Assembly: GCA_963924565.1 (NCBI GenBank) | Contig: OZ004610.1 | Location: 29,450,001 to 29,514,000, forward strand | Length of the DNA stretch: 64,000 nucleotides | Direction of reading: 5' to 3' | From: Ascidiella aspersa | Lineage: Eukaryota | In this document: positions 10,101 through 64,000 of the stretch, piece after piece | Numbering within the stretch: the first letter of the stretch is position 1 | Layout of the letters: every line of letters begins with the position of its first letter | Notes under the pieces: model-generated | Seen by the model: only the letters and a program-made list of their open reading frames with translations | Database searches by the model: none | Told to the model about the DNA's origin: nothing | Made by a program: the position numbers and the translations under genes

Positions 10101-13100
10101 ACTGTCTGCAGGCTGTTTCTTTCTATCGCCAAATTTGAAGTGCTCTCGTCCTCTGATGACAAATTTTCTTCTAAGACAAAGTCTCTTCTTCCTCTTCTGA
10201 AATTCTTGAGCTCACGAGCCTCGCGATTACGAGCCTTTCTCTTGTTTCGCCTGAAGTAGAACGAAGGCGGAACTCCAGCGCCACCCACCGGGCACATTAC
10301 GTCACCAACAATGACGTCATCGTCATGACAGCCCGACGTCAGTTCTACGATTCCACCGGTGCTGATGTCGACCAGGGTGGCGGTGGGCGGTGCTGTCATA
10401 TGAAAGCCAGTCCGCTGCGAGTTGGCCGCATCACGAGATGAGTACGTGAGCTTGTGAGTTGTATCGCTCACGTTTCGCGCGTGATCATGAGCGCGCTTTC
10501 GTGAAGGCAGGTCACGAACTGAGTGAGGCTGCTGATTTTTACTGTTTTGAGCGACATTTGAGCTTTCATGTGATGCGTGAGATTTATCACGGAGCTTTTC
10601 GTCGGTGAAACGCAGCGTCGGTGAAAATTCAAGACCAATTCCGCTGTCGCTGTTGGGCGTGATGTCGGTCACATCTTCCGTAATGGTATTCTCTCGGGTA
10701 CCGTGAACGCTAAACTGCACAGGCCTGGATAAACTTAACGCCGTTCTTGCCGCTCTGGATTGGCCATATTTGCCCAAGAACGGTTCGATGAGATTCAGCT
10801 GTTTTAAAGAGGAAAGAACGTCGTCGCTTTCTTTTAACACGGGTTTTCCGAAACCCTTTCGACCGAAAACAGAATTTCGCTCGGCAAGATTTTGCCGCTT
10901 GAAAGGGTCGCGTTCGGGATACTTTCTCTTGACGACATGACCCTTTTTCGTGAAGTTGTCCCGCTTTAGGGTAAGTGGTCTCGGGGGCTGTGGTTTGGTG
11001 ACTGCCTGACCCACGCAAATGTCGACAATGTTGTTTGAGGCGGTAGGTTCGTGCAGGTTTGCCTGGGAATGGTGGACGGAGGGCAAACGGAAGATTCTAT
11101 CCATGTTGTGTCGTCTCTTCACATCGCAACAAAATATTGGTAACTTTACTTCACCAAAAACTTTAACTCTAAAGTACTGGTCAGTTACAATAGTCCCTTA
11201 AACGGAAAAAACATTCTTCCTAAACAGTGAAAAAAATCCACATAGCTCAGCATCGACATAACACGGCATGGAAAATTCGTTTAATTCGGATATACGGTTA
11301 AACTAGATCAAGTTATGACATGTCTGGTTCCATATTCTAGCCCCATTACGGTAACCTGGCAAAAATAACTCGATTGACGTAAATTATGCAGATAATATCT
11401 AGCTTGTCAAACTAAATATATGCACCTCGACAAATCAGTATATCACGCATATTCGGTAGTCACAAGTGGTTTAATTTTTCTCAAACTCTTTAGCATTGCT
11501 TATAGCTGCTTTATATCACAAGTACTCTTGTCGTTTACCGTAATAGGCTGACCAAGGGAACTTTACAAATCAATCTACGGCTACTTACGCACACAAGTGT
11601 TTATTCAAACGCAGGTGACACAAGGTACAGCCCAGCACAGTCGGAGAATATTTGCTCTTTTATAGTTCAAAGGTGTTCCCAAAAGCCTACAAATCCCCTG
11701 GCAATGGCAGATGTTGGCCGAAAAGCGTCAACTGAAAAGGGCAGTTTGCTTTGAATGTTAAAACCAATCGGTAGCCTTTATTGCTTTCAAAAACAAGAAA
11801 ACTCAAAGCCGAGTAATTTTAATTCGTTTTAAGTACGGTAGGGGTTGAATGAAGGCACAAAATCGTGGGTTAAACAGCAAAAGAGCCGTTACTTCGCGCA
11901 AGGGCTATGACACAGGCCTGAAGTGGACGTTTGCGCGGAAAACTAACAGTTTCTTCGGGCGAGAAATTCACCGTCTGCAAGACGTAGGATTTCGACCACT
12001 CGGTGGTTTATTCGAGGACCGCAAATCGCACTTCAACCCACGATAAGTTACTGCGATTCCAAGCACATCAAGGCCAAAGCTCGGCTAAAAAATATTGAGG
12101 GATTTCTCAAAGGCTTGGGCGTTAAAAGTTGTAAGTGGCGACCGGCGATCACTGGGCAACGAATAACAATATTACCTTTGCCTAGTTTACGGTTTAAAAG
12201 TATATTTTAAGCATAAATCAGCTTCACTTTTAAAGTATTTTCAAACCCGCTTTATACTTTGCTATGTAAAAAAGATGCGCGAATTTTCCCTTTAAATCGG
12301 CAAATCAAATGAAATGTCAGCTAAATAGAGATATGTAATAAGATTTATTCACAGCGTAACGCACTCTAGCTCTTAGAAAAGCGCGAAAATTAAATTTCAA
12401 CTAAATTTATTCAATTAGTTATATATATATAAACATTCAGCTAAAATAGAGATATGTATAAACATTTATCCACAGATTTTCTATACCTCGGTCGGGACAG
12501 TAAATATTATGATAGCTGCAACCAACTACTTAACGACATTTGATTGAGCAGAATCAGTACAAGTAACAACATGGCTTTGCATTTCGTCGCCGTTTCAACT
12601 AACTAGAAAATTGCACTACTAAAATCCAAAACAATTCACAAATATTTTACCTAACGTAATTTTAAAAATAACCTTGCAAAAACGTTTGTGTGAAATACGC
12701 TGATAGACTCAGACAAAACATTAAACAGAAAGTAGGGATTCTAAAGTTTCTTTTTTGAAACAGTAAGTTAACAACTGGAGGTAACTAAATTTTCTTAAAG
12801 TTAAGCCACTTTTGGCGAATTAATCTGAGAACAATTATTAAATCTTACTCAGCGAATCTAATTAAATGTCAGCTAAATTGGAGATATGTACAAACATTTA
12901 TCCTTAAATCCAAAACCATCCACAAATATTTTACCTAACGCAGTTTTAAAACTAACCTTGCTAGTTTATCACGTTCGATCAAAATACGTTGATAGACCCA
13001 GATATACCAATAAACAGCATTAACACTTTTGGACCACTTGTAGTAACTAAGAAATCCACAAACACTTAGCTGACCAAGGAAACGAACAGGAATGTTAACC

Positions 13101-33963: not shown

Positions 33964-34803
33964 AAAAATCTGTTTTGGCTAATTATTATTTGTTGATGTC
34001 TAGTAAACGCCTTTGTAAGTGTTGTAGAGAAATTAAAAAATGATTACGTTTTCGCTGACGAAAATAGACCAAAATGCGGGTCACAAGAGTGAATCGACCG
34101 TGTTTTCAGTTTATTTCGGTTTTATGAACACCAAGCTCGTTATCGTTCACAGCTGTCGTGAAATGGCAAGGACGCTTTGAGCGGATGGATTTTTCACGCG
34201 CCAAAACGCGACCCACGAGTCAAAGCAAACCGAGCAGAAAAAATACGCTTCGAATCGGAAGTGCTGCGGTGATTTGCGTGAAAGTGGCCCTACACACGCA
34301 TATATAATTCTGTACGCGAGAGCAAGCGGCAATGTCAGCGCGGTTTTTATAAAGGAAAGGACGGCAACTAAAAAACATACAGAGTTTAAAATTTTTTGGT
34401 TCCATTTCGTGTTTTGATACATGGTTATTGCAGTTTAATAGTCAGTCTAATAACGGAATTATCTGATTTAAAAAAATGTAATTAGTATTTTCGTATTTTA
34501 AATGGTGTACAAAGGCTCAGATTTATTTCGTAATTTAATTTGTAAAATGGAAATAACTTGAAAGTTTAAATTTTAGAAAGATTCACAAAAAGTATTTTTC
34601 TATACTCGTATGTTAAACTTCAATCTTAAGCCATTAATATTTACATACCACTTTACAAAGAAAAAATATTTGAAATATTTTTTCAAGTTGATTGTAATGT
34701 TCAGTACAACCTTATGCGTGTCAACACGAAAAATATAACCGATTTGTTCTCGTAAAAACAGCTCTGTAGAAATACAATTAAGAAACAAAATATCACCCCG
34801 GCT

Positions 34804-37800
34804 ATGGCAATTTGTGGTAAACGTTATCTGGTGGCGGCCTTACTTGTCGTAGTTTGCGGCGTCGGCCTTGTACGAGCTCACAGTTGGATTGCTTGTACCG
34901 ACTACGCTGAGAAAAACGCGGCCACATGGGATCCGAATAAGTGCAGGGGCTTCCCCAGGAACGCCGCGGTGAGCGTACCGAAGACTGGAAAATTCGGCGC
35001 CGACTTGGGTAAGTATGTTACATTTAGGATTTCTAAGTATATAAACTCACTGAAATTTGTTGATTTTCTACCATATTTGGGAACAACATTTTATACTGTT
35101 GCTTTCCCCGCGTATAGTATTAATAAAGATCAGCTTTTCTGGTAAATATTTTTCTAATTCTTTGACGTTTGGACGTCATATTCATTCAGACCAACAGTTT
35201 AAACCCAGCACCAACTTTTACTTTACATTTCCTTTGAAACCCCTCAGTTAATAAAACATCACCCCCAAAAACGTTTAAATAAACGTCTTAATAAAAGCAA
35301 CCGGCAACGTTATACAGATTCTCATAGTATACGTCCACATATTTCTTATTTTAATTTTTTAACTAATATTGACTGTTTTATTTACGCACGGTCTCAGGTT
35401 ACGATCACATTCCCAGCAACACGAATGCCTGCGGTCAGAAGAAAAGGACTTACGCGTCCGACCATCCTATGGCGGTGTACTATCCAGGCCAACAAGTCGT
35501 CATCGTACATCCAATGAAGGTGAGTACGAGTTTAGAAAGCGTACAGTCTATTCAGGTGTATTCCCAATTCGTTATATGACTATTTCTTCTGATTAGGCCA
35601 ACTTTTTTCGATAATAGGCTTTTCAAAGCCACCCGTGTATTATCATGAGAGTACGGGTTCAGAAAGAGAACAGTCTATTCTGATATATCCCCAATGCGTT
35701 ATATAGGCCTATACCTATTTCTTCGGATTAGGCCACTTTATTTCGATAACAAGCGTTTCAAAGACACCCCATGTATGAATATGAGTATATGCCGCAATCG
35801 TTGGTCATTACTATTTCAGCAGGGATAGAAGTATATACCCATGCAAATTCCATGACTTAGTGAATTTTGTTGATTAGATTAACAAAATCTGTGCCGCAAC
35901 TCGCAATCATAGGGATAGAAGGTGTTTTGTGCATAAAAAAACGGTATCCTATATTATTATATCGCCACCGATAGCAAGGCGTATTGTATCAGTCGCTATC
36001 GGTACTCGTTTCAAAACTAAAAAATAGTTAAAATCAGTTCCCAAAAATTGAAAATAACTAAGGTTTCTAAAGATTAGGAAAATTGCTTTTTTTGTTCTCA
36101 CCACGATATCGGTTCAATTCCCCAACTTGATTTTGTCTGACGTAAGGGTCCTTTCGAATTTTCGGCGAACCAATACAGTAATGTTATATGTAGATTAGAT
36201 TTCACGTAACCATATGAGTCATTAGAATTTACACTGAATATTTCCGGATTTGCAGGAAGTAGAGCGGTAGCAATAAAAATGTCGAAATAACTATCGCGTC
36301 ATCGTATGACTAACTGTTGTTAATATCCTTAACCGCTAACCCCTCATGAACTCAAAATATTGAACACATACATGTATATTCAAATTGTGGAATAAATCAA
36401 TAAAGAATATATTTACATGTCAATTAGCTGTTCTATACAAGTAAGGGTTGCTCAAAACTTAAAAAAACGAAGTAGTTTTAACGCTAGCAATAGCAAAATT
36501 ATTTTTATTTAAAAATGTAATATACTTCGTGGTGCGAAATTAATGACTCAAGAGACTCGTTTACCTATTAGGTTGACAAGTGACCATACTTATAGAACGG
36601 AGCGACATAACCATGAAACGGATGTTCTTTATATAGTTGTCCATGTGCAACATTTGTGACACGGTCGCTGTAGCCTACATTTGTGCGCCTTGACCTTCAG
36701 CAGTACTAAAATAGCAAACTAAAGCCTTAGTGTTTTAACAAACTTTGTTCATTAAAGTTTTGTTAAGCTTAAAGTAAACAAAGCAAAATAGATAACAACT
36801 CTAATAAGCTTTATTAGTTTAAAGTTGCAATGTTAATAAAGTGACTTTTGTGTTTGTATTCTTTCTTTTCTTATTTGTAAAATTTGCATGGGGTTAATTT
36901 CAATAAATAAACCATTTGAAAAACTGTAATCGTTGGCCCAAACCTTTTGGCGATCTGAAAAGCATAATCGCGTATTTTTGTTCCCATAGAACCATGGAGC
37001 GGACTCTGCCTGCGGCAACATTTGGATTCCAGACCATGGGTCGTGGATCTATAGGACAGCAGGATCTCCTTCGAACAAAGATCCGACTGTTGAAGAGTTC
37101 AGGAAAAAACTCGTTGCGGATTTGGGTAAGTCGGCAGATGGAAAAAATAGTTTCAGCTCTTGCGGGTATTGGTTTATTTTAAATGTCCGACTAAGCTGTA
37201 ACTGGAAATTTTGAAAAGAGTGATTAGGCAGATAGGTGTCGTATAATACGCAAGTTCGTTTTAAGCCCTTCAAGTAATTAAGCCTATAAAATACTATTAC
37301 CTTTTAACGTTTTCGAATTAAAGCTGCACGGAGCCACATCAGTCTCTTGGATTTGCATACTGCTTGCGAGTGCCTACCTTGTAAGGCATTGCTTGCTTTA
37401 AATGCAGTTGGTTAAACGACGCACGACCAAGCCATAAAACTCTTAGTATATTCTGTTTTTTGCGCCCGTAACTATTGGTGCTTTATTTGAAAGCGACCTC
37501 AAAACGTTTGCCACTTCTATTAGACACCGACAAAAAAGTTAGAAAATGCATTAATTCGAATTAATTAGATACTGATGATGCTTATTATAGCAAAATATAT
37601 TTATCGTATTTTAACATCTAAACAAACTGATTTTCGGTTTACTATAAGTTCTGTACTTAGTTTAGTCTTTTTCATTGATGTGCAGCCACAATCGTTTGTT
37701 TTCACCATTCGGATTCAGGCAGATTCCGTTATTCGAAAAAAAATTCTGATTAAATGTGCAAAGTTAAGAAAAATAAATATACTTCAACTATAGCCTTAAG

Positions 37801-40800
37801 CTTTCAGGGACGATCGTACGTTGATGGTTAAAGTGTATATAAAGGACGATCGATCTCACAATCGGTTTATTTTACTGCAAGTTCCTCATTAAAAACGATT
37901 TTATTTCAGGCCGATCTCCTCGTGGGGCAGACTTCGGTTCGGAACACGGCCTGAGCAGTCGCTACCCCAAACCAGGTTTCCAGAATGCGCCTAAGTTTTG
38001 CGAGAACACCAACACCGCGGTCGCCACCTACAGTTTCAACGTGCCGAGGAACCTTAGGCCAGGTATAACGATTACGATTGCTAAGATACTTATTTAACGC
38101 AAGGCGTGCCGACGTTTTGTCGACAGGTTGTTTTTCATGTGGCAAACAAGGTTTATCTAAGCTTACGACAGTGATTGTTAAACTAGGAACCAGGCCCCAC
38201 ATAGGTTTTCAAAAATGTCCGAAGAACCACTACACGTCATAATTTATTTTTACTCACTGCAAAAGCATAAACAACTCACCAAAATGTTGCCAGGTCACAA
38301 TTTAAAAAATAATAGGTTATGATTAATATAAGCACAATCCAAGATCTATTTTGGCGTTGTTTGTAATGCGATTGGGCGTTTAACATTTTCCGAAATTGAT
38401 GATATTTCTTTCAGGCGTCTATACTTTTATGTGGCTGTGGTCGTTCAACTCGGCAAACAACTTGTACAGCACTTGCTTCGAGGTCCAAATTGTTAGAAAC
38501 AAGGCGGCAAGGGACCGGAGTCTGCGGGTAAGTAGATGAAAAACTCAAAGAGTATTGTTCTTTCAATTAGGTATGCAGATTCTGAAAACTCAGCCGTTTT
38601 CAAATTATTTTTCGTTGCGTTCAGCTGCATTGGAACAGCGTTTAAAAAAATTTAGCCACACACAGACTAATGCAAAATAGAAATAAAACAACATAATAAA
38701 AGTTACTAATCTACAACGAAGTTGGTCTTACTAACAAACTTTTTGTATAGGCCTATATAGTTCACTAAAGATGATTTTGATTAACCAATTTCTATTGTTC
38801 TTTGTATTCAAAAGACCGCTAATATTTGGCTAATAACGAATACGTGGTTCCAAAGGTTTTCCAATGAAATAGAGTCTATCACCGATATCATCGTTTTTCG
38901 AACTGTTTTTCTTGTACGATATTTCTTGTATGTATAATGAGATGTTGTTTTGTCCAGGCAAACGGCTTTACCGACCTAACAGAGCCGTGTGGCGGTTTGA
39001 CCTCCAACCCAGACGTGATGGGCAACAGTAATCCGGGATGCACTAGACAACCAGCTTTCAGCTACGCCGCGGTAGCTGGTGTACGGCCGTCGGAAGTACC
39101 AGAAGCAGCACCAGAGCGAGAAACCACGACCAGCGATGACACCACCTCGACCTACTGGTGGCAGACAACGAACAACCAGAACAGACAGACGAACAACCAG
39201 AACAGGCAGACCACGACACCGTATTATTGGGAACGTCAGACAACCAGAAGGGCCGCTTCGGTCACGACGCCGGCGAGACCATTCTGGTGGCAGTATACCA
39301 GCACAGACCAGGCAAGCGAACCAGAGTCATTGGCACCAGCGGCGACCACGCGCTCCCCGCATCGAAGACCACCAAAACCAACCAGGTGAAACACTAAATA
39401 TTTATAGGCTGCATTTCACAACTGTATATAGCCGCAATAAAGTCAGTCCCCAAGTTTGGTTTTGATCTTCTCGATTTTTCCCCGCTGAAAGAAGCTACAT
39501 TTGAATATTACTAAGAACTTCAGGACAATATACGCTTTAGTTGATTTAAAAAAGTTTAAAGAATCACGTCTTCTTTTAACTATCACCTTTTATGAATCAC
39601 TATATATAGGCTACCGTTTTTTCTTTTATTTTACGTCGAGCTATACAAAAGAGGCATTTATCTCACATTGATATATTTTCAATCTGTCATAAAAATGACT
39701 TGACGTTAGATAGATAATAAGAACAGTGGATTGTTGCAATAGGTCAGCATTGCTCATTACACAAATCATTGCCACGATATAGAGTTTATCTTTTAACATA
39801 AATGGAAAATCAACTCTTAAATGCCATTGGTACCGTTATAGGAAAATTCTACTTGGTATCAGTCAAAAATTACGTTATATCTAACAGTAAAGTAAAAATT
39901 TGGCATTAAAAATGCTCATTTAAAATATATTTTATAAACTTGTTTATTGTAAAATTAGGATTTCTTATAGGGTAAAGCAGTTGTTCGAAAAACATTCTAT
40001 TTGCCCCGATAAACCTCTCTAACTTAGCATATTATGTATACGCAGCATTTTCATGAGCATCGACGTGCACATGATGTCCAGCCAGTTTTCCGGCGAGATG
40101 AGGCTTCCAGTCGCCCGTGGCAACGCAATTCGTCGTTACGTTAGCGCAGACTTCACCTGTGACCTCACAAGCGCGAGCGTAAGTACATGACTACGTCATA
40201 CTTTTAGTATTTTCGCCGATTTTTTTATTGAAAACGCACCTGGTTCTTGTATACAACATTTAATGCGTATTGATCTTGGTGTGATTTCGGCAAATTGCTC
40301 AAGTAGGGCGATTATTCTATGACTTGAAATAAAATAAATAATTTGTCAAAATTTACACGAGGTCAAAGTTACAGCAGTAGCCTAAGCAGCATATGCATTT
40401 CACTATTAGACAAGTTTTAGATGAGATAAATAGCTTAGGCCTACTTGACTAGCCATAACTCCTTTGTTACATTATTTGTGCCATTGTTATTCCATATTAT
40501 TCGATTTTAAATCCGTTTTCAGTCTGACTTTATGAACCTGGGACCAATTCACTTGGTACGACACTTTATTTCATGTACCTTAACTAAAAAAATATTAACA
40601 CCAAACGTTTTTTTTAATTTTCAGTTTTGGAACGCGATGACGATTTCCGACATGGAAGAGTCGCTTCGCTCCAATCACTTCGAGCTGGTACAGCAAGGCT
40701 CCAAGGAGCTGAGAACCAACCGTATATTTTATCACGTGACCTTTTCCTCGTCGTGCGACCTCTCGCAGCACGCGCCTGTTGTGAGGCTACTTCGCGAAGA

Positions 40801-40810
40801 TTTGAACTAA
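34804..40810 (+). CDS. Secreted N-terminal-His (LPMO-like / histidine-brace) protein with Thr/Pro linker and C-terminal CBM2-like domain, 491 aa, 8 exons
   Basis: Exons 34804-35008, 35398-35519, 36990-37125, 37910-38062, 38415-38527, 38958-39385, 40046-40178, 40625-40810. All introns are GT-AG and phases are consistent; total 1476 nt. Signal peptide ends VRA|HSWIACTDY. Internal motifs: YPGQQVVIVHPMKNH, and FNVPRNLRPGVYTFMWLWSFNSANNLYSTCFEVQI. The gene model is solid; the function is inferred. Confidence 0.8.
35522..35788. repeat. ~127-bp diverged tandem duplication in intron 2 of the LPMO-like gene
   Basis: GAGTACG.GTT.AGAAAG.G.ACAGTCTATTC...GATTAGGCCA...TTCGATAA...TTTCAAAG occurs twice (35522, 35649). 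Confidence 0.85.
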
Positions 40811-41649
40811 AAAGTGTATTTTTCCTCTGTTTTCTGTGTATAGCGGAATCGCTTAGTTTTTTATTTCATGGAAGACAACGTACTTTGCCTCCATTTAAAA
40901 AAACAAATACCTTCGAGATATTCTTATAATTAATCTCATTTAGTCTAAAATTTAGATGCTTGAGTGGTAGAATCGATTAATTATGCGATACTGCCTTAAA
41001 GGGCACCAAAACCAAACGATTTTTTGCTTCACAGCTTTGTTTGCGACGCGTAAACTAATAATTAAAAATCTAAATCTGGTTGTAAATACAGTACTATGCT
41101 GATCACTTTCCTGCTATGCCAAAAACTTTTTTCTTATTTTTTTTTCCAAAATGAGCCAATGCTGCTTTTTTGTACATGTTCCAATGTTTTATTAATTTTG
41201 TTTTTGTATTGTGCCTGACACTAACTCGCACCAGTGTCTATATATTGACAATTTTTAGGCACTTCTCGCAATATTACTGTAGTGTATTGCTACACAAAAA
41301 CTTTGTCACACAATACTTTATCTGTTCAGTGAACATTTCCCGGCATATTTATTACACTTTGCTGCCTTTTGATTTCCTAATTTTCCTTTGCGTCGGAATA
41401 AATTTTGCTTGCATTTGTTAATGTTTTAGTTTAGTTGTTTATTGCCAAAGACTTCATAATTTGTTTCCAAAAACATGTAACCCAAAATTTTAACATGTTT
41501 TTTCGAAATGATTTCTACTAATGGGAAACCCCTAATTGAAAACTACCGTAAAATTGAAAACTACCGTAAACAAAGCAATTGTTGTTCAACCTGGCAGCCA
41601 AAAGCTAGCAAAAAAGTCAGCAGTGGCCAGGTTGGAAAGAAAGGCCTGG

Positions 41650-41975: not shown

Positions 41976-44750
41976 ATGCAACACAGCAACAGCTGCATGG
42001 GTTATAGAGAGAACATTGATGATTGTGTGTCTAAAAATTTAAAGAAACCAAAATCGTGTGGAGACATATCTTTGGAATTATACTTGCAAGAAAAAATATC
42101 ACCCGGAATTTTGGCTGATTTGCTGCCTTGTTTATCTACTCGTAGTGGAACTATAGCTAAAGTAAGTAAAGTTGGATTATGAACACACATATAAAAAAAA
42201 TATAATTAACATTAAAAAAGTCTATTGACCTATCTGGAAAGTATGGCACATATTGAAGACAAACTTGCAGGTGCACTTGCCATACCTTCCATGGTAGCCT
42301 ATTAAGGCATATGGGTTTTAATCAGTTATCCTAGTAACCAATAATAATAAAGGGTTGCAACAAAATCTTCGGATCTTATAAGTTATTAAATGTTTTTGAA
42401 TTGGTTTATGTAGCTAAATGCTTAAAATCCTATGTTTTTCCAAGTGTCTGTAAAGTTTAAATAGTCTTTTAATTTATTTTATGTCCAGCTAATTTATGTG
42501 TTTGGAGTGATGCGGCAAAAATAATATTTTTTTTGACTTGTTTAGTTATTGTGTTAACCATTGTATTTATAGAGTTTTGTTTTTGAATCTTATTCTAAAA
42601 TGTTAAACAATCCGATTTTAGTTCTTTAAAAACGTATAAATTTTTTTCTTAAATAGTCTTTAAATGTAGTTAATTTTTTTACGAATGTTATGTGACACAG
42701 TGACAATTCTTTAACTTTCACAAGTCATTACTAAAGGCAATCATTTTAACATACTTTGGCTTTATCAATTTTAAATCAGAATCACTTGTTACCTCGTTAA
42801 AACACAAGATACCACAAACTTACAAAAAATGCATCATGTTGTCATTTAATCTAGTTCTAAATACTAATACTGTTTCATTCCATTAAGCAAAAAATCAAAG
42901 CAGAAGAAGAAAGATATGGAACCATAAGGTCAGCTTTCTCTTTTTTTAGACAAATTGAAAGATTTTCTGGATTTGGGGCACAATTGCTGGATGCCTTGCA
43001 TTATGAGAATCAACATGACTTGGCTGATATGATTTATAAAGGTATTGAATAAACCAGAGGTCCCCAAACTGTGAGTCACGGCACCCTGGTGTGTTTATTT
43101 CATTTTTCAAAAACGTTGCATAGGGATTCTGTTTCATACCATACATGGATTATGATTTTCTTCAACAAACAAAAAATAAATTGGCTTTTGTGTTGAATTT
43201 TTGTAAAAGTCAGTAAAATTTATATTGCTTGGTGCATCGCAAGTCCAACAAACTTCAAAAGGTGTTGCAGGAAAAAGAGTTTGAAAACCGCTGGATTATT
43301 TTGAGACATGAAACAAAGAGTGCAGTACACTACTTTTCCTATGAAATTTATTTAGCATCTAGTCTTTCTAACTATATAAATCTAAACCCCTTTTTAACTA
43401 AAAAATATGTTTTCCATTTATGATTAATAGGACCGAAGTATACACCTCCAACTGTGGATCATAATTTTCAGTGTGCAATACAACAAGACAACTAAGGGAA
43501 AAGCAATTTCCAGTTTTGCCACCACCATATGAGGTTAGTTTTGCATAAGGATCAATAACTTATTTTTTTAAAGCGATTGGCAATGTGCAATTTTTACAGA
43601 AAAAAATTTTCAACCAAGTTTATGATTTATCATCACCTATCAGTTTAAGGTTAATGATTCATTTTTGTGAGTAGTATTAAATGACATTTTTACTCCCAAC
43701 TTATACCTTACAAAATAGGCTGTACTAAACAACTTACTTTTTCCATTTAAACAATGCTTCACAGTTCGTTGAGAACATGACATAAGATAACTTTATATTA
43801 TTTTTGTTTATTTTAAATAGCGAAAATATGTTTATTTGTCTGGTTGTCTGTTCTACAGTTATGTCATCATGCATAGATTCCACCTTGGTAATGTCATGTG
43901 GTTCACTGATATATTTTTGTTGATTTGATGACAATGTTTTACTAATTTATGTGGCCAAAAGTTATATTCAGAGTTCAGACCATATTCTATTGTTGCAGTT
44001 ATTTCCTTTCTAGAACAAAATAAAGTCTATTTTATTTCTCAATAACATTAACCTTTTCAGCAAGTTGACGCGCTCAGCACCACACAACCGAAAACATTGC
44101 CCGTCCCCAGACCATCATCATCTGACACGGCAGAACAGTCGGAGGACAACTACACCCACCAATCAACGCCCCTTGCGCAAACTAAAAGTCCGCTCAACAT
44201 GGATAAGATCCTGCAGGATGCACAATCGCCAGGCGTCTTACAATCGGTGGCCTTGGAGCCTAATATTGTAGAAATAACCCCTCCATCGAGTATAATGGAA
44301 TCCAGTGGCCCTGTCATGTTTTCAGCGCTGTCTGATGTAGTACATCAAGATCAAAGTAAAGTCAACTTGGCAGGTTTACAAGTCGATGTTGGCGTTAGCA
44401 AAGGCTCGGAAGCTGGGTTAGACCACTCGCTTCTGTTACCATCTGACACTGGACAACAGCCCGAGTGTAACAGTGATCAAACACCACCAGCACGTTTTCA
44501 CCCTAACGCTTCACAGTCACTCTTTTCTGAGATTCAACCCTGCCCGAAAACTACTTTAAAACCTACAGAAATGTCTAAGGCTTTTGAAGTAGTCCCTTCT
44601 AAGCTCACTGTAGGGAAAACATCACCATACCTCAGCTCACATAAGCCTATTGATGCCGATTTACCTTCACATGATAAAGGGAACGATTTTTTTGCGAGTA
44701 TTGCTCGAGGGGCGTTGTTATTTTTAACCTTAGATGATTACTTTAGCTGA
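41976..44750 (+). CDS. MAVS: MAVS-like CARD adaptor (RLR/MAVS-type CARD, Pro/Ser-rich region, hydrophobic C-terminus), ~363 aa, 4 exons
   Basis: Exons 41976-42161, 42888-43041, 43472-43533, 44061-44750 (1092 nt, phases 0/1/0). ILADLLPCLS...KQKIKAEEERYGTIRSAFSFFRQIERFSGFGAQLLDALHYENQHDLADMIYK parallels the MAVS CARD (ILPYLPCL...G...QRRPGW..F..AL.....DLAD). Orthology not proven. Confidence 0.6.
43055..43293. mobile_element. hAT/Charlie-like MITE in intron 2 of the CARD gene
   Basis: CAGAGGTCCCCAAACT ... AGTTTGAAAACCGCTG termini; TSD degenerate. Confidence 0.65.
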
Positions 44751-46102
44751 TATGCAAAATGTTTTATTTTGTTTTTATTTTATTTTTAAATTATGCAAAG
44801 TACTTTAAATGAAGATTTATTAACGCGTGTGGCAATTTTAAAATCGTACTATATTACACTTTTTCACGTTTTTAATTAGCATACCTTTCTACAGCTGTCT
44901 TTTATTTATAGTTTTTAACAACAATAAAATGTTTTTGTGTCTTGTGGTTCTGCATTTGATAAAAGTGAGCCTGCCTAACTGTTTTTTTTTACTTTGCATT
45001 TCATTTTACCACCTTTTTAAAAAAATACAAAATCTTTTTAAACACAAACAGTATTCAACATCATTTAGGGGTTTGCCAACTAAATTATTATGCCTACACT
45101 AAATTGCAAATATAACCAATTGTATGTTTGTATTCCTTATGTCTATTTTGCAACTTCAATGAAAACTACTGAATAAATGTATGAGCGTAAGACCAGCTTA
45201 TGTGACAAGTAAAACTAGACTTTCAACGATTTTAGTGCCGTTTAGAGAGCTCTGTCGCTTACTTTACAATTTTCTGTCGGCATGGTTAAGAAACTTTTTC
45301 AGTGGCCAATTCGTTGCTGGCAATCAATGACAAATGAGCAGACAGCATGCTGCAAAAATTGTACCATTTACAAAAATACAAAAATAATGAACAACCACAG
45401 TTAGATGTAAAAAGTCGTGGCTAGTCGCAAATGTTTTCAAAGAGATTCTATAAAAAAATGAGCCTCGAAACTTTTTTAATTAATTCAGACGCTTCGAGGT
45501 GACATATAGAGATTAATTATTTTGCATTTCGTCTCTAAAAATACATGAAATCGCGTTGAACGCCCTAAAATACTCTTCCACCTTCGTTTCTACATAAAAT
45601 AGAAACAGAAAATGGAAAAATAGAAATGAAATATTCAGCAGACTATGACATCACAAAGCTGACCAATATGCATTGTTATTTGTTTATTGTTGTCTAAAAA
45701 GTAGTTCGTTTTAAACAGTTTTGCAGTCTACTTAGAAACTATACTGGAAAAGATTTCGAGTGGATTAAAAAAAATCGAAAGGTAAGAATTCATTAATTGA
45801 TTAATAGCATACCATAGGACATTTACCTGTCTGTTTACTGCTTTAAACTGGCTAAAGTTTTATGCATTTGTCCTGTGTCAAACATACCTTTTTGTAGAAT
45901 TCCCTAATTGGAAATTTATTTTAGTTTTTGGTCATGTGATGTTACTTCAGTTTGTGTTGGGTTAGCCAACAAGGCAGTTTCAGTTGTTAGAATTCTCTTT
46001 GTTGGTTTGGTTCACTATGTTTATGCTCAATATTAAATTAACTACTGTGCTAGTAGAATTTTGGGTGTATGTGAAAATCGATAAAAAAAAAAACTTTCTT
46101 CA

Positions 46103-46265
46103 AATACTGCATACCACAACGCATATTGTTTAAGTTAGGGTGCGGGTTAGCGTTTGGTTGAGGGTGGGTCAAGTTATTATTAATAATGAACATAATATTA
46201 CTTGACCCACCCTCACCCAAACGCTAACCCTAACCCAAACAATATGCGTTGTGGTATGCGGTATT
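46103..46265. repeat. Imperfect foldback element (~65-bp arms) containing TTAGGG/CCCTAA motifs
   Basis: AATACTGCATACCACAACGCATATTGTTT...GGGTGGGTCAAGT pairs with ACTTGACCCACCC...AAACAATATGCGTTGTGGTATGCGGTATT. Confidence 0.9.
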
Positions 46266-46580
46266 ATTTTGTTTTGTTTTTTGCATAACTTTTAACGTAC
46301 ATAAGTAAAAGAGCGCCGAATTTTTGTATGTTTGGAACTGATTAAACTTACATTAACTAGAGTTTGCCAGTTTGAACAGGATGAATATGTTTGGTTTTCA
46401 AATTTTATTAATTGTGAATTTGACTAGCTTGCCTGCCAAAATTTGTTTGGGTCATACTGTATACCTAGGTTTTTATCCTGTATTCTCACTCACTAATTCT
46501 GTCTGTAACTCAATCTTATTGCCTTTACACGTGTTTTCAACCAAACTCATATTTTTTACTGCCAAGCAGACAGATCAGAT

Positions 46581-46586
46581 TTTATT
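46581..46586 (-). terminator. Poly(A) signal of myosin copy 1
   Basis: AATAAA ~80 nt after the stop; conserved in copy 2 at 60563-60568. Confidence 0.75.
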
Positions 46587-46667
46587 GGATTAATTGTTTT
46601 AAATGATCGGTTTGTGGAAATAAATAAAGAGTTGAACGTCTGATCCAGTTCTGTCGTGAAGCGCAGT

Positions 46668-56593
<9,926 letters not shown>

Positions 56594-56756
56594 GGTGAAG
56601 TGTCTAGCAGATTCTGATAATAAAAAGTTTGTTTCGCTAGTGGCAAATATGTTTATAACAATGTCTGCATTGATTAGCTGGCTCATTTGTTACATTAATT
56701 AGAGGTCATTCATTTCTACAGCTCTAAAAGCAAACAATTAAGTACAAGTTACTTAC

Positions 56757-57010
56757 CCTGTATGAGAGCAAAGTCAGATTTATCAAAGTTAGATGACTGG
56801 GATGTCGAGCCAACTGATGATCTAGAACCGTTAGCATCTCTCTTTTATACGCGCTCGTCAATTATCGCCAAACGCTTTTTTTGCACTGCTTAAAACAGTT
56901 GCGCTATTAGCACCTTATTAGATCTGCGGCGGCTGTTTATGTCGTCACCTTAAATCACAATAGCCCGCAATTACAACGCTTGACATATATTGTTGCAAAA
57001 CCTACACCTT
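56757..57010 (-). promoter_or_regulatory. Myosin core promoter, non-coding exon 1 and muscle-type cis-elements
   Basis: TATAAAA 56849-56843; Inr-like TCATCAGTT from 56820; donor CAGG|GTAAGT at 56757; TGACG half-sites at 56856 and 56943; E-box at 56896; T-box-like AGGTG sites at ~56915, ~56950 and ~57009. Confidence 0.7.
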
Positions 57011-58703
57011 TTGCGTATGAGACATTATGCTACACAGTTTTTATTATGATTGTTTAAATTCGTCTGATTACGGTAATATTTATGGTTTTCATGTACATAA
57101 AGCAAGTTATTGTTTAACAAGTTGTAAATGTTGAAAAGCTTATAGTCATTTTCTAACAATGTTGTTAACAATAGAATTATGCGTTGTGTGGCTAAAACAT
57201 ATAACTTGCAAACATTTTACAGTAAATTACTTCTAGATTCGTTCTATTTTCATTTTTATATATATTGGCATCTTATTGTGGCTTTTGGGCAAATAAAATT
57301 TGGTCGCGAACTAAAAAGGTTAAGAAGCACTTAATTACCTCACTTTGTAGCTATACGTATTTTATTATTGTAACCCTAATTATGCATATATTACTTATTT
57401 GTTAAATCAAACTATGTTTTTTGCCATTATTAGCTAATGTAATTTTTTGCAGTTTGTGCAAACTTTTTGTTTTAGTATATGTTTTTCCTGTTTTAAGGGT
57501 CTATGTAGCCACCATCGCGCATACTTCTAAATTAAAAGTTTTGCCAATTTAAACCCAATAAACTTACTTTCTTGACGCGATTAAACTGGATTTCAGCTGC
57601 ATAGTTGCGCACGAGTTCGTTAGAAAATAACAGTGTGTGATTTCAGATGTTTTATGACTCCACGTTAAGACGTCTTTGCAAAAATATTGATTTTATTTGG
57701 TTTAAACCGCTTTTGGGAGATTTTCTAAGAACGGCCACAAACATATTGAAGCATGATAGTAGTTAGATAAATGGAATTTACCAAAGTTTAGCAAAAAAAG
57801 TATAGTGTAGCGTGTGGACATGGCCTGGTTGCCGTTGGATCTACCCCTGTTTGTGTCTTGTCAAAATTTCCCACATGTTAATCCACTTAATGCGACTATT
57901 TATATTCAAGGTATGAATTTAAAACGGATTCACGAGCTAAAAGCGTTTGCCGCCCAATAATAGGTCTGACACTAGATTGTTGTAGTCTACGCTATCGTAC
58001 ACTGAAATTATTATACACTAATGACTAAACTATGCGCTTTGTTTTTTTGCCAATCATTTTAGCACTTGCGTTGTCGCGCATACACAAATAAGTCCTCACT
58101 TATTTGAAATGGAACACCAAAAAAATTTCCTAAATAAAAACGTGCGGATGGAAATTTTTAAGGTTGAAAAGCACTGGGTTGGATGAATGATATTTAGTAT
58201 TAGAGTGTTAACAGTTTCGATGAAAATTTGCAACCTTTGTCCTCAGTTTTTCCTCCATGAGCTTCTTGCTTTAAGTTAGTTTCTTGTATATCCATCTTGC
58301 TGGTTACAACCTAGCAAACCTTTATTTGTTTGTAAAACATTATGAGTTTAGTGGTATAAAGCGTTTGCTGCAGGTAAATTATTATGAACATTTAATATCA
58401 TTGCTGTTATCACATGTGTATGTGTTTTGTTATTTGCGTCTATTGCATTCTTACCACAAAGTTAAAATCCATGGAAAATTAAAACGTAAGTTTTGCCAAA
58501 TCGTGGTTTCCCGTGGTCTGCATGTAGGGGACCATGGCCTCCTAACTAATAGTCAGTCAAATTTAACAACATACCGGTACATTCCAAAACGCGCATTTTG
58601 TGAATCTCATTTAAATTTAAAAATGTTAAATAATTCTTTTTGATTAACATTAAATCTTTTTTGCCCTTTCTTTGTTTCCCAAACGCCCTGACACTTTGTA
58701 ACA

Positions 58704-59318
58704 CAGTGGTTCCCAAACTGTGGTACGCCTACCACCGATGGTACGCGAGAGTATTTTAGGTGGTACGCGACTAACTGCAGCATACGTATAAATTTGCGAA
58801 AACTGAAACTTTCGGGATTGGGTAATTTCTAATGTCGTTTAAGTTCCCTGTGGTTTCGCACGTTTATGATGTAACACTTATCTTGTTCAAGATAATAAAA
58901 CGCTAATTGTTAGCTGGTTTAATATGTATTTAATAATAATGCACTGATAGCAGCAGTGTAGTATTGTCGTATGTATATTGATATTTCAATGATATTGAGC
59001 TTCTGTAATTTCTTCTAAAATAGAGGAATAATGAGAGGACTAAATTTTGTTGAGAATTTAGGAACATGTCTAAACGAAAGTACAGTCAGGCTTACATAAA
59101 GTACGGGTTTGTAGCTATTGATAACAAAGGAGAAGCTCTTCCGCAATGTTTAGTTTGTGTGAAATATGTTATCATCATGCTTGAACCGAGTGACCGAACT
59201 AGTAAATTTCGTCAAATCTTCTGCCTTTAATACTCGGTTGTTTAAACGTCTTTGTGAGAATCTCAGTTCAAATTACACCTGTTTTCTCTATTACACAGAG
59301 GTGCGCTGGCTCTCACGT
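58704..59318 (+). mobile_element. Deleted hAT (Buster/Charlie, ZBED5-like) transposon relic
   Basis: Left TIR CAGTGGTTCCCAAACT with GGTACGC repeats. 59066-59163 encodes MSKRKYSQAYIKYGFVAIDNKGEALPQCLVC (BED-finger start). 59202-59318 encodes VNFVKSSAFNTRLFKRLC...YTEVRWLSR (hAT RW motif). Confidence 0.9.
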
Positions 59319-60646
59319 CCATCGCATTAAAACAATTGCTGCGTTTTGTATAATGTATGGCTTTTATGTCTTCCTGGAATGACATTTGTGAAACTTGATT
59401 ACACCTACGCCATAACGTAGGCATATGGTTTTTACAAAAGTTATATAAAATTGCAGTTTTTCCTAGGCTTGAATTAAAATGAATATAGTTAGACTCTTTT
59501 TCTGAACATTAGTAACAAAGTGTCTGTTTAGTGACGTATTTTTGAAATATATTTTAGCACTAATACTGGCTAATTTGGCTGAATTGACTATTTTATTTTA
59601 TCAAGAGAGACTAAAAAGTTTTCATGTGGAACTATTTAAGATCTATATGGCCTATTTTTTATTTGGTATCAATACACTATTCATAAAATATGACGTTTGA
59701 TCGGCATCCATTTGGTTTTACATAATTTTTGTTAGGACAAATGTTTTAAGAAGGCCAATTCCCACGTCATAACTTGGCCTGGCCGACTTGGTCCAATTAA
59801 GTTTTATGTTATCCTAATAATGTTCTTTAAAGTGAGATCAATCTCTAGTACTTATAAGCATTTTAAAATTTTGAATCAAGAAGAAATCAAAATGATATTT
59901 TTTACGAGATTTGTTTTAGTTACTGGCATTTTTTTCTTTATGTTTCAAGAAAAAATATTTTTTGTAATTAATTATTTTTTCATCAAGGATGAGACTCCTA
60001 TGTCTGTTTACAGATTTATGTTGGCTTAAGTTGTCTACAATGCTAGGGTATTTATTATTCGTATTATAATAAAAATAACTCAAAGAAGAGTCGGCTAATA
60101 TATAAATTTTTATTTCAGTTTATTCTCATTTGCTTCGGCTTTGTTTAATGTTAGCTAAAAGGCCAGATTTAGTTTGGTTGAATAGTCCCATTTTGCTTCT
60201 TTTACTATGAAGATGCTCACTCTATTACTGATATTATACAAGAATTGGGAAAATGGTATATAAGACGACGTATGTATTGAACGAAGTGTGTTTTTTTGGA
60301 CAATAATGGTGATCTAATTTTTGTTTGATTCAACTTACATCGTAGAGTATTGTAGTTGGTATTTCATGGATCTGTTTCGTGTACACATTTTATTAATCGT
60401 TTTCGAATAACTCGAGAGTCTCATATCGTTTGGTTTTTATAGTAAGCATCCTCCCGTCTTGTCTAAACTTCACCCACTATTTTTTCTAGATGCTGTGCTA
60501 AATTCTCTACATGCTTTTTAACCAAAATCATATTTTGTAACTGCCAAGCAGACAGATCAGATTTTATTGAATATTTTTTTTAAATGGTCGAATTTGAAAT
60601 AAATAAAAAGTAGGACGTCTGATCCAGTTCTGTAGTGAAGAGCAGT

Positions 60647-63600
60647 TTACTCCTGAAACAAATAAAAAAGTAATTAATATTTGTTGATCAAACGAAATGT
60701 AAAGTATCGTGTGATTATTATAGCAAACGTCAGATTTTCTTTTCTTCGGCGAAAAATTTACCTTATGGTCTCTAGCCTTGGATCTCAACTTGCTAAGAGC
60801 AGACTCAGCCATATCAGCTCTCTCCTCTGCATCATCAAGCTCGTGTTGCAGTTTTCTGTATTTGCTCAGATTCGTGTTGGCTTGTTCCTCCTGCAAATTT
60901 AATACAATTAATAAATCTTTTTCAACCATGATAGTAGTCTGTTATGACTTGCATCAGTTGTTATAACTATTTATACACCTTTTCCCTGTGCTATTTTTAA
61001 CTTCCAATTTCATTTAAATGATGAAATATATGACTGTGGTACGTAAATTAATTTACAAGTTAAAGCTTCACTTACGGCTTCCTCAGCTTGTCTCTTGTAT
61101 GTCTTAACTTTGATCTGGAGTTTGTCGACGAGATCCTGGATTCTGGTCAAGTTCTTCTTGTCCTCCTCTCCCTGGTAAGTGATCTCCTTCAACTTGCGTT
61201 CCATCTTGCGCTGTCCCTTAACGGAGTCGCTATTGCGCCTTTGCTCAGAGTCAAGTTCGTTCTCAAGTTCACGAATCTAGAAATAGACGAGTTGATTGAA
61301 TTGTATGGAGACATTTTTTATCGAAATGTTTTTTTGCAGTAAAGCGTTTTCGACCAACTTACTCTAGTTTCCAGTTTCTGGACTTGTTTCTTTCCTCCTT
61401 TCATTGCAATGTTTTCAGCCTCGTCCAATCGTTGCTGCAAGTCTTTCACCGTCTGCTCCATATTCTTCTTCATTCTTTCCAAGTGAGAAGAAAGATCTTG
61501 TTCCTTCTTAAGTTCTTCAGCCATGGTAGCAGCCTGAATAAAACACAAATGGTTATGGTTTGCAATGTGTCTCAAATAAGCGTTATGGGTCAACGAGACT
61601 CACATCAACAATAGCCTTCTTGGCCTTGTCTTCGGCGTTTCTTTGTTCCTGAACGGACTCTTCGACCTCGGATTGCATGGTTTGGAGTTCACCCTCAAGC
61701 TTACGTTTCTGGTTGATGAGGGCCGTATTTTGCGTGTGGAGAAGGTTGGAGCGTTCGCTGTAAACAAATATCATAATAGTTTTTGATTGCCTCATTCATC
61801 ATTGCACGAACAATGCAATACTGACGGAAACATCAGTGATAACTATTAAAAGAGCAAATTAAACATTTTATAAATACAAACCTGCTTTCAAGGAGCTCAG
61901 TCTCAGCCAACTTGCGTCCACGTTCAGCTTGCTCAAGAGCAGATCTTAACTCTTCGATCTCAGCATTGAGGAGGTTGCTACGACGCTCGATCACGGCCGA
62001 TTGTTCCTGGAAGTCCTCGGATTGTCTCTGAGCCTCATCCACTTGCATTTCAAGATCCTACGTGTAGGTAATAAAAAGCTTAATGTACGTTTCCAAACGA
62101 CATATTTCTACTTTTAAATCACTGTAAATACCTTGATATGAGATACAACGGACTTGGCTTGCTTCTGGGCTTCAGACGCTTGTCGGTTGGCGTGTCCAAG
62201 TTGGATTTCAAGGTCATTGAGATCACCTTCCATCTTCTTCTTGATCCTGACAGCTTCTTGACGAGCTTTGCTCTCTGAGTCGAGGGTTGTTTGCATTGAT
62301 TCAATGGCACGTTGTTGGTTGCGTCTGTTTTACAGGGTTAGCGTTAAAAAAGCCCGAACTAGAACAATGTGGAATATGTACAAACAAATTTTGTTCTTCA
62401 ATTACCTTTGATTGTCGAGTTCTTCATCCTTCTCTGAAACTCTTCGCTCAAACTCTTGCTTGACTTGAGCAAGTTCAACCTGCAATCGCAGGACCTTTGA
62501 TTCCTCTCCCTCGATTGCTCCTTCAGCTTCTTCAAGAGCGGCTTGCATCTCGTTGCGCTCGTGCTCCAAAGTTCTCTTGGCTTTTTCCAGTTCGTGTATG
62601 CTCTTACCTCCCTCTCCAAGTTGATCGGTAAGATCAGCAATTTCCTCTGTGGGAAGAAGGAATTTAATATTACTTGATGAATAAATCTAATTATGTTTGT
62701 ATTAGCAAAATTTACCTTGAAGATTCTTATTTTCGCGCTTTACAGTTTCTAGAGCATCAAGTGACTCTTCGTAAGCATTCTTCATCTTGAAGAGCTCAGT
62801 TGAAAGGCTTCTTGCTTCTTTCTGGGATTGTTCCAATTCTACCTGAACCTCTTCTTGCTTCTGCTTGTGTTCAGCAAGAACCTGTTATACACATTTTAAT
62901 GTAAAGTTAGGGTTGCAAACGGAATACAATCAAATTATTGCAGGTTTGGCTTCAACTTTTCACGTCAACATTCTGCTTATTGCACACAATATAATAAAGT
63001 TTTCGATTTGTTATGTAGCGTTGAACGCTAATTTACCTTGTCGAAGTTTCGCTGCTTTTTGTCCAATGAAGCTGCGGCAGAGTTGGATCGTTCTAAGTCG
63101 ATAGTAAGATCCTCGATTTCTCCCTGAAGACGGTTCTTTGTCTTCTCGAGACTCGATGCCTTCGCTTGCATGGCTTCAACCTGCTCCTCGGCGTCTTGGA
63201 GGCGAGCGGCAAGCTTTTTCCTGTTATAATATATTGTTGTCATTTAAATTATTCTTTTTTACGTGCTCGAATAATATCACTTTCACAAAACAACTAATAG
63301 TTGATCAAAGTTAGAATTTGAGTTGGAACTTTTCGATACGAATAAGATTTCGTAAGCTTAAGAAAAAAAAACTCACTTCGCATCTTCGAGTTCCTCTGTA
63401 CGCTGGATTGCGTCAGTCTCGTATTTGTTCCTCCATTGAGCAACTTCAGCGTTTGCTTTGGAAAGAGCTCGTTGGAGTTCGGCCTTTGCTTCTTGCTCTT
63501 CTTCGTATTGCTCCCGCAAGAGGTCGTTGTCGTGGCGAGCAGCCTGGACAGCGTGAGCAAGAGCAGCCTTAGCCTTGGTCTCCTCTTCAACAACTCGCTT

Positions 63601-64000
63601 AAGTTCGTCGATTTGCTGCGAGGAGCTGTTTTTGCTGCGGGTCAGTTGCGCCATAAGGTGTTCGCGTTCCTCCAACTGGCGGCTGAATTCACCTACAGAA
63701 CATGTTATTTAGTATTAAATATTAAACCTAATGCGACAAGTCGTGCTATTTTACTTACCATTCTCAGATGAGAGTCTTGCTTTGGCCGCGTTGAGCTCGT
63801 TGACTTCTTTAGTAAAGTTGTCGTTCTTCATCTTAGACTCGTTAAGCTGCTCCTCCAAGTTGCGTGACATCTTTTCGTAGTTGAGCTTGGCCTTGGTGAC
63901 GCTCTCAACGTTGGTGGCGAGATCATCGATCTCCATCTTCATTTCACTTTTCTCCTTCTCCAACTTTTGCTTAACCCGTTGCAAATTGTCAATCTGAGAA
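60647..64000 (-). CDS. MYH: Second tandem myosin heavy chain gene, 3' part (light meromyosin exons; continues beyond the window)
   Basis: Same exon series as copy 1 at an offset of ~13.97 kb with essentially identical translation; TAA at 60647-60649. Confidence 0.97.

Follow-up and report, generated by a model that had tools for sequence, protein, structure and literature searches.

A tryptophan-poor, probably CBM2-derived tail module on a predicted secreted LPMO-fold protein of the ascidian Ascidiella aspersa

What is the tail module of this ascidian protein, and what might it still do after losing tryptophans that its relatives keep? The window (the whole 64,000-nucleotide stretch of DNA analysed here) contains a gene whose last two exons had been read, in a preliminary description, as a degenerate CBM2 behind an enzyme and a linker. 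The reading favored here, to which we give a probability of roughly 0.55, is that exons 7 and 8 encode a conserved CBM2-descended module that has lost two triad tryptophans and would tether a predicted secreted copper enzyme of LPMO fold to glycan, either weakly or at a changed target.

The gene has eight exons, all on the forward strand (34804-40810); every intron is GT-AG, and the single open frame encodes 491 amino acids laid out, from N to C, as signal peptide, His1 domain, Thr-rich linker and tail module. Exon 1 (34804-35008) carries a signal-peptide-like leader (aa 1-25) and then His26 (codon 34879-34881), which, as the N-terminal residue, would be a copper ligand; the hydrophobic leader and the structural alignment of this residue to LPMO residue 1 suggest cleavage immediately before it. 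The LPMO-fold domain continues through exon 2 (35398-35519), exon 3 (36990-37125), which carries His111 (codon 36993-36995), the likely second His of the brace, and exon 4 (37910-38062), all of these, like exon 1, given by both the open frame and the transcript contig described below. Its final strands are in exon 5 (38415-38527), along with Asn221-x-Tyr223 (Tyr223 codon 38465-38467). Intron 3 contains a high-copy repeat element (37612-37752), where contig depth is in the tens of thousands. Exon 6 (38958-39385) encodes a Cys-Cys loop and then a Thr/Pro/Arg-rich linker, with three aromatic-Trp motifs that could be binding or cross-linking sites. Exon 7 (40046-40178) and the coding part of exon 8 (40625-40810, ending in a TAA stop at 40808-40810) together make up aa 386-491, the module that closes the protein, and their translation is exactly the peptide quoted earlier. 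The first half (aa 386-430) includes Gln399, Gly402, Arg416 and Cys424 (codon 40158-40160) and is missing a W17-type site; the second (aa 431-491) includes Trp432 (codon 40628-40630), the equivalent of W54, with Gln453 and Cys474 (codon 40754-40756), and is missing a W72-type site. GC3 is 0.71 in exon 7 and 0.68 in exon 8, and intron GC 0.30-0.36.

All seven GT-AG junctions are found on one 2076-nt contig from run X3, which spans 34762 to 41366, skipping 660 nt at junction 6-7 and 446 nt at junction 7-8; X3 is taken to be RNA, as its contig is spliced. Raw RNA reads from a separate study (run X4, about 6% of the run) cross junction 6-7 twice and junction 4-5 three times; none is listed across junction 7-8, which is seen on the X3 contig only. 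The contig end, together with X4 read depth extending to about 41375, gives a 3' untranslated region at 40811-41366. Splicing of exons 7 and 8 to exon 6 thus passes the RNA check, by the contig and two X4 reads at junction 6-7, and the proposed enzyme-linker-module layout is borne out by the 491-aa open frame and by homologues of equal layout.

The nature of the His1 domain is indicated by several kinds of comparison. All 47 aligned rows share its His-Ser-Trp and its second His, and the first His superposes, by structural alignment, on residue 1 of solved LPMOs. Against PDB sequences, a His1-domain profile finds AA11 LPMOs only (E 1.5e-6), with Asn221-x-Tyr223 aligned to AA11 Glu138-x-Tyr140. 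The predicted folds discussed here and below are those of homologues (the P0049 domain and the P0025 module), not of the window's own spliced protein. The P0049 model (pLDDT 89; Foldseek E 1.3e-5) resembles AA10, AA11, AA9, AA15, AA13 and X325 structures at Z 11.0-8.4: the 21 chains at Z >= 8 are all LPMO or X325, with a best Z of 11.0 and rmsd 3.0-3.5 over 145-154 residues. The Atlas neighbours of the domain are DUF7492 clusters and one named LPMO. None of 35 homologues matches LPMO_10 (PF03067) at E 1. Some pass the cut-off of 27 for DUF7492 (PF24320), scoring up to 35.6 bits over a short C-terminal stretch only; the nearest orthologues, at 22.5 and 24.9 bits, fall under it, and a weak DUF7492 hit on exon 5 is the sole match when the window gene is searched against Pfam exon by exon.

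DUF7492 is the nearest Pfam family as well as an Atlas neighbour, and fungal DUF7492 proteins, AA11 and X325 share with the His1 domain the N-terminal His, the second His and an x-x-Tyr before a Cys. X325 proteins, which share the domain's fold at Z 8.7, bind copper and are not known to cut polysaccharide. Compared with AA11, structural identity is about 15%, and two positions ahead of the Tyr there is Asp (37 of 54 parsed members) or Asn (9 of 54, and the window), shorter than the AA11 Glu. The window's Asn221-Leu-Tyr223 does fit the axial-site motif N/Q/E-x-F/Y that PMC5320794 gives for LPMOs; with Asp in most members and Asn in the window at this position, LPMO activity is not assured. The preliminary description took the module as independent support for a polysaccharide-directed role of the His1 domain. 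A module that has lost the triad gives that support by ancestry only, and the predicted LPMO fold of the domain itself is the stronger argument for such a role.

The LPMO-linker-CBM2 layout is known from bacteria, and animal LPMOs are known as AA15. The bacterial AA10 protein ScLPMO10C has the same three parts as the window protein (Z 10.4 for the His1 domain against 4OY7, Z 5.2 for the module against 6F7E), whereas the window gene is animal and intron-containing, its domain is nearer AA11 by sequence and has Tyr instead of Phe, and its module has neither the triad nor the MMH copper motif, no M-x-H being present in aa 386-491. AA15, an animal LPMO family with tunicate members fused to GH18 according to PMC5823890, is likewise secreted, similar in fold (5MSZ, Z 10.1) and often followed by a C-terminal CBM; the homologues of the window protein differ from it in having no LPMO_10 match, and the partners named for AA15 in the accessible part of the literature are CBM1, CBM14, GH18 and GH19, not CBM2.

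Is the tail module a CBM2? Window exons 7 and 8 give no match to Pfam CBM_2 (PF00553), nor does any of 22 tunicate-type proteins; an Atlas search with the module of homologue P0002 gave no usable match, and Foldseek with the module model found none at E 0.001. Because the direct PF00553 and Foldseek tests fail, the link to CBM2 needs intermediate sequences. These come from amphioxus and annelid members of the same protein family: a profile of the window module and 23 close relatives finds the C-termini of amphioxus P0051 (32 bits) and P0052, of Owenia P0047 and P0046 and, weakly, of P0050, and P0051 is the one of these five outgroup proteins that passes the CBM_2 gathering cut-off (27.7 bits against 24). 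Aligned by hhalign, the tunicate-type and outgroup profiles match with a probability of 97.8% (E 7.9e-13). In turn, the three PDB sequences that match the outgroup profile are CBM2s without exception (E about 0.04), and W17, W38 and W54 of Cex fall in register; the alignment covers Cex 14-63 only, the W72 register being inferred. The tunicate-type profile matched no CBM2 among PDB sequences.

Searched against 1.84 billion proteins, a profile of 31 Trp-poor modules gave 38 matches. Of these, 34 are modules of tunicate type, whole or in fragments; three are repeat proteins with no relation to the module, matched over 20-30 positions; and one is P0084, a P0051-like protein of amphioxus type, at E 1.4e-5 over positions 15-101 of 103. 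One of the unrelated repeat proteins ranks ahead of P0084, which itself matches CBM_2 at E 2.6e-4, below the Pfam cut-off, and the search reached no bacterial CBM2 directly. The window module scores 100 bits on a tunicate-type profile that includes two of its close orthologues and 21 bits on the amphioxus/annelid profile; among 500 shuffled modules (470 and 439 reported, respectively) the maxima are 5.3 and 4.5 bits. From this chain of sequence matches and the common position in one protein family, the module very probably descends from CBM2. The earlier label of degenerate CBM2 thus holds as to origin, by way of intermediate profiles, hhalign and the structural re-alignment described next, and fails as to a direct PF00553 match. 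Modules of this type escape Pfam and are therefore missed in annotation.

Folded from the Trp-poor alignment alone, the module of Clavelina P0025 is predicted with high confidence (pLDDT 94.8) as a two-sheet beta-sandwich of about 100 aa; homology and the predicted folds relate it to the three-Trp CBM2-like modules at the same place in the amphioxus and annelid homologues. When the 998 chains from Foldseek were re-aligned, the top five were all CBM2-type (Z 7.1-5.7, rmsd 2.6-3.1), in a comparison that reuses Foldseek's own list and is not an independent search. A wide structural search placed five CBM2-bearing chains within the first 31 and cohesins (Z 6.3, 6.2) in a tie with CBM2b (Z 6.2), all below 8. 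As a check of the expected CBM2 beta-sandwich, the outcome is mixed: the sandwich and the re-aligned top chains agree with it, and the missing Foldseek match and the cohesin tie do not. Structure alone is compatible with CBM2, not decisive.

Another possibility is that the module is unrelated to CBM2, being either a beta-sandwich of no special kind, like those of cohesins or pilins, or a functionless relic. The lack of Pfam and Foldseek matches, the cohesin tie at the top of the wide search and a mean identity to the outgroup modules of just 19.5% would be expected if this were so. It is nonetheless quite improbable: in sequence the module matches, over its full length, homologues within the family that carry CBM2 at the corresponding place, and Gly, Phe-x-Cys, Trp, Gln and the second Cys are shared by tunicate-type and outgroup modules; sequence identity in the structural matches is 2-4% for the cohesins as against 12-15% for several CBM2s. 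Conservation speaks against a relic in particular: the module is 57% and 54% identical to those of the closest relatives, Clavelina P0025 and Ciona P0028, compared with 71% and 66%, respectively, for the His1 domain, which suggests that it is under constraint. Proteins of equal layout in Ciona, Clavelina, Styela and Oikopleura conserve it.

Which tryptophans are gone? The five outgroup modules have 4-5 Trp each. In 32 tunicate-type modules (the window and 31 others), the W17 site has no Trp, nor is there one within the 14 residues before the invariant Gly; the five-residue turn that would carry it is either deleted, by sequence alignment, or replaced near Met396, by structural register. The W38 column, a buried position in CBM2, is Arg in 30/32 (Arg416 in the window), the W54 column keeps its Trp in 30/32 (W432), and at the W72 site, whose register is itself deduced, a Trp is nearby in 2/32. 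Fixed or nearly so are Gly402, Cys424 and Cys474 (32/32), Gln453 (30/32) and Gln399 (29/32), and the aromatic columns 449, 466 and 470 are conserved. The preliminary description counted two of the usual Trp as lost: three of four are in fact missing relative to intact relatives, two of them from the binding triad. Trp432 is presumably exposed at the surface.

According to PMC5935602, W17, W54 and W72 form a flat cellulose-binding strip, and a role of the aromatic triad in CBM2 binding is also described in 10.64898/2026.10.13.758739. The planar triad that marks type A CBM2a modules is absent here. C. fimi Cex (1EXG) and Pyrococcus ChBD2 (2CWR) resemble the window module in being beta-sandwiches of about 100 aa, the fold predicted for it (Z 5.1-7.1), with a central Trp at the W54 position and a C-terminal place behind a Thr-rich linker; they differ from it in that the window module has no W17 or W72 site, has Arg for W38 and an internal Cys424-Cys474 pair, and lies below Pfam detection. 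The xylan-binding CBM2b modules of C. fimi (2XBD, 1E5B) are near-best structural matches (Z 6.0-6.2, rmsd 2.6) and also have no full triad, but they keep the first Trp (chain residue 259, at the alignment start), where the window module has none; the pair of surface Trp typical of CBM2b, which includes this first-turn residue, is therefore absent too. By its sequence, the module is probably CBM2-derived yet would not be a type A binder of crystalline cellulose, because two of the three triad Trp are gone and only W432 is kept. The shift in ligand preference first proposed from the missing Trp is accordingly counted as likely, as a putative consequence of a triad reduced to one residue.

In addition, 13 of the 43 modules of tunicate type have a convertase-like site, R-x-K/R-R (those of P0007, P0011, P0017, P0031, P0034, P0035, P0038, P0040, P0044, P0048, P0059, P0065 and P0069), in the loop after the kept Trp; the roughly 11,200 residues outside this loop include three such sites, the rows being related rather than independent. 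The loop corresponds to aa 433-448 of the window protein (40631-40678), where the site is absent. An invariant Cys lies on either side of it, and the pieces of a cleaved module would therefore hold together.

The Trp loss seems to be old and to have happened in one lineage. In a midpoint-rooted tree built from 63 His1 domains, a single branch (94/96, just below the starred level) sets apart the 40 proteins whose module is Trp-poor. The module tree shows this split too (100/99, on a long branch) and leaves the window protein in an unchanged orthologue group. All named members of the Trp-poor clade are tunicates, both ascidian and larvacean, and the unnamed rows are assumed to be so. Since one clade holds both, the loss likely predates the ascidian-larvacean split.

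Is it confined to this family? A general loss of CBM2 triads in tunicates, which live in cellulose, was considered and rejected, since CBM2-like exons adjacent to GH9 genes keep their Trp. Across 20 stretches, each of 10 kb, flanking GH9 matches in the A. aspersa genome (6611 frames), a three-Trp profile finds Trp-bearing CBM2-like exons at E 3.9e-6, 8.1e-6 (L025) and 0.004 (L026), and the Trp-poor profile finds none in the same flanks (best E 0.9). Place and strand suggest that these exons are spliced to GH9; none of the seven passes Pfam CBM_2. The Trp loss is thus likely specific to this His1-domain family, in one tunicate clade, on the sequences compared. The Trp-retaining exons lie by GH9 cellulase genes at L025:1691-5644 (reverse strand; a tandem pair), L026, L012, L023 and L030, and exon-level GH9 matches in this genome number 75, grouped into about a dozen clusters. 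That animal GH9s can carry a CBM2 is already known (described in PMC5977491). Genome-wide searches with PF00553 and PF03067, profiles poorly suited to split exons, gave no match in A. aspersa.

How might such a module work? Alignments and trees show that the Trp-poor clade keeps Trp432, Gln399, Gly402, Gln453 and the Cys424-Cys474 pair and has Arg fixed at the core-Trp site. Lacking the flat triad, such a module would not attach firmly to crystalline cellulose in the manner of type A CBM2s. Its remaining Trp and the Gln residues could instead form a small site for single chains or a non-crystalline glycan, holding the enzyme near, yet mobile on, a chitin/cellulose matrix such as the tunic, house, feeding net or gut envelope, where the His1 domain, with its His26, His111 and Tyr223, would bind copper and putatively cleave polysaccharide oxidatively. 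The gut envelope of Ciona is chitin with cellulose fibres, as PMC6109156 describes it; it and the others are candidate matrices, the ligand, copper and activity all being predicted.

A less probable but serious alternative is that the CBM2-derived module no longer binds sugar and has a protein-docking or regulatory role, capping the copper site or tying the enzyme to a matrix protein. Loss of the triad while Trp432, Arg416, two Gln and a Cys pair stay fixed would suit such a role, as would the joining of every full-length true match among the 38 to one catalytic domain; the convertase-like site in 13/43 modules hints at regulation, and there is a precedent, reported in PMC12703677, in the CBM2 of ScLPMO10C, which docks on its LPMO and guards the copper. 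The window module, as noted above, has no M-x-H copper motif, and some family members carry a hydrophobic tail in place of the module, as expected of an exchangeable anchor. One is paralogue B, among the three family members in the A. aspersa genome (G000:C4:30735000-30738800, reverse strand; L008-L009), in which Pro-rich tandem repeats are followed by a hydrophobic, GPI-signal-like tail, with no module in the 8 kb downstream; several other homologues likewise end in a hydrophobic tail with no module. Paralogue A (C4, 9.03 Mb), by comparison, has both module exons and the same phase-0 intron ahead of Phe-Trp.

It is also conceivable, if unlikely, that binding to crystalline cellulose or chitin persists in the module, by way of a rebuilt surface of Trp432 and nearby Tyr, Phe and His, helped by the aromatic motifs of the linker in this orthologue group. 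Polymer binding is retained by some CBM2s whose third triad position is not aromatic, according to 10.64898/2026.10.13.758739, and columns 449, 466 and 470 are conserved as aromatic; the first two of these are aromatic in the outgroup too, as core residues would be. Linkers in the window's four-member orthologue group have 6-17 aromatic residues, compared with 0-2 in the other 39 rows, so that the aromatic linker is a feature of only 4/43, and two of the three triad sites are empty. Both of these readings rank below that of a weak or re-targeted glycan anchor.

The family itself extends beyond tunicates. Exon 8 alone found no homologue as a query; exon 4 found the full-length homologue P0002, which in turn found 66 proteins, the named ones from Ciona, Clavelina, Phallusia, Styela, Oikopleura, Branchiostoma, Owenia, Watersipora and Naegleria, with the others unnamed; the orthologue in Ciona is LOC101242977. 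The His1 domain-linker-module layout is common to nine named tunicate proteins from four genera and about 30 unnamed ones. Elsewhere the partners vary (among P0050, P0046, P0047, P0061 and P0063): amphioxus P0050 apparently has two tandem CBM2-like modules, the first degenerate by eye, Owenia P0046 and P0047 have TSP1 as well as a CBM2-like module, and the Naegleria homologue has a different partner domain.

Literature searches, with most subscription journals outside their coverage, found no paper on the His1-domain family or its module, and none for DUF7492 or for six gene identifiers of the family; the main text of two papers on HGT in tunicates and amphioxus (PMC13390645, PMC13350694) mentions neither monooxygenase nor chitin. 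A tunicate-wide LPMO orthologue group, ENOG5028N9R, is named in PMC8704543 and may be the same family, in which case the family may have been recognized automatically before. AA15 is the only animal LPMO family found in the literature searched; the His1-domain family would be a second of LPMO fold. Its members, from tunicates, amphioxus, an annelid, a bryozoan and Naegleria, are to this day annotated as uncharacterised. Its three-Trp modules outside tunicates and one-Trp modules inside are a natural experiment on how a CBM changes target, and the comparison bears on whether the only animals known to make cellulose apply oxidative enzymes to the tunic they produce. A tentative scenario, which we hold to be speculative, is that an active, so far undescribed LPMO family of chordates and other marine animals ancestrally carried a three-Trp CBM2, and that the tunicate stem, which gained cellulose synthase, rebuilt this as a one-Trp module, convertase-cut in some members. 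What the enzyme remodels would then be not food but a cellulose/chitin matrix made by the animal itself, such as the tunic, house, feeding net or gut envelope.

Elsewhere in the window are a 924-aa Ser-rich open frame (8423-11197, reverse strand), a 232-aa Ser/Pro-rich open frame (44052-44750, forward strand) and, at about 46000-64000 on the reverse strand, two tandem, nearly identical genes with duplicated exon translations, which we take to be myosin heavy chain-like.
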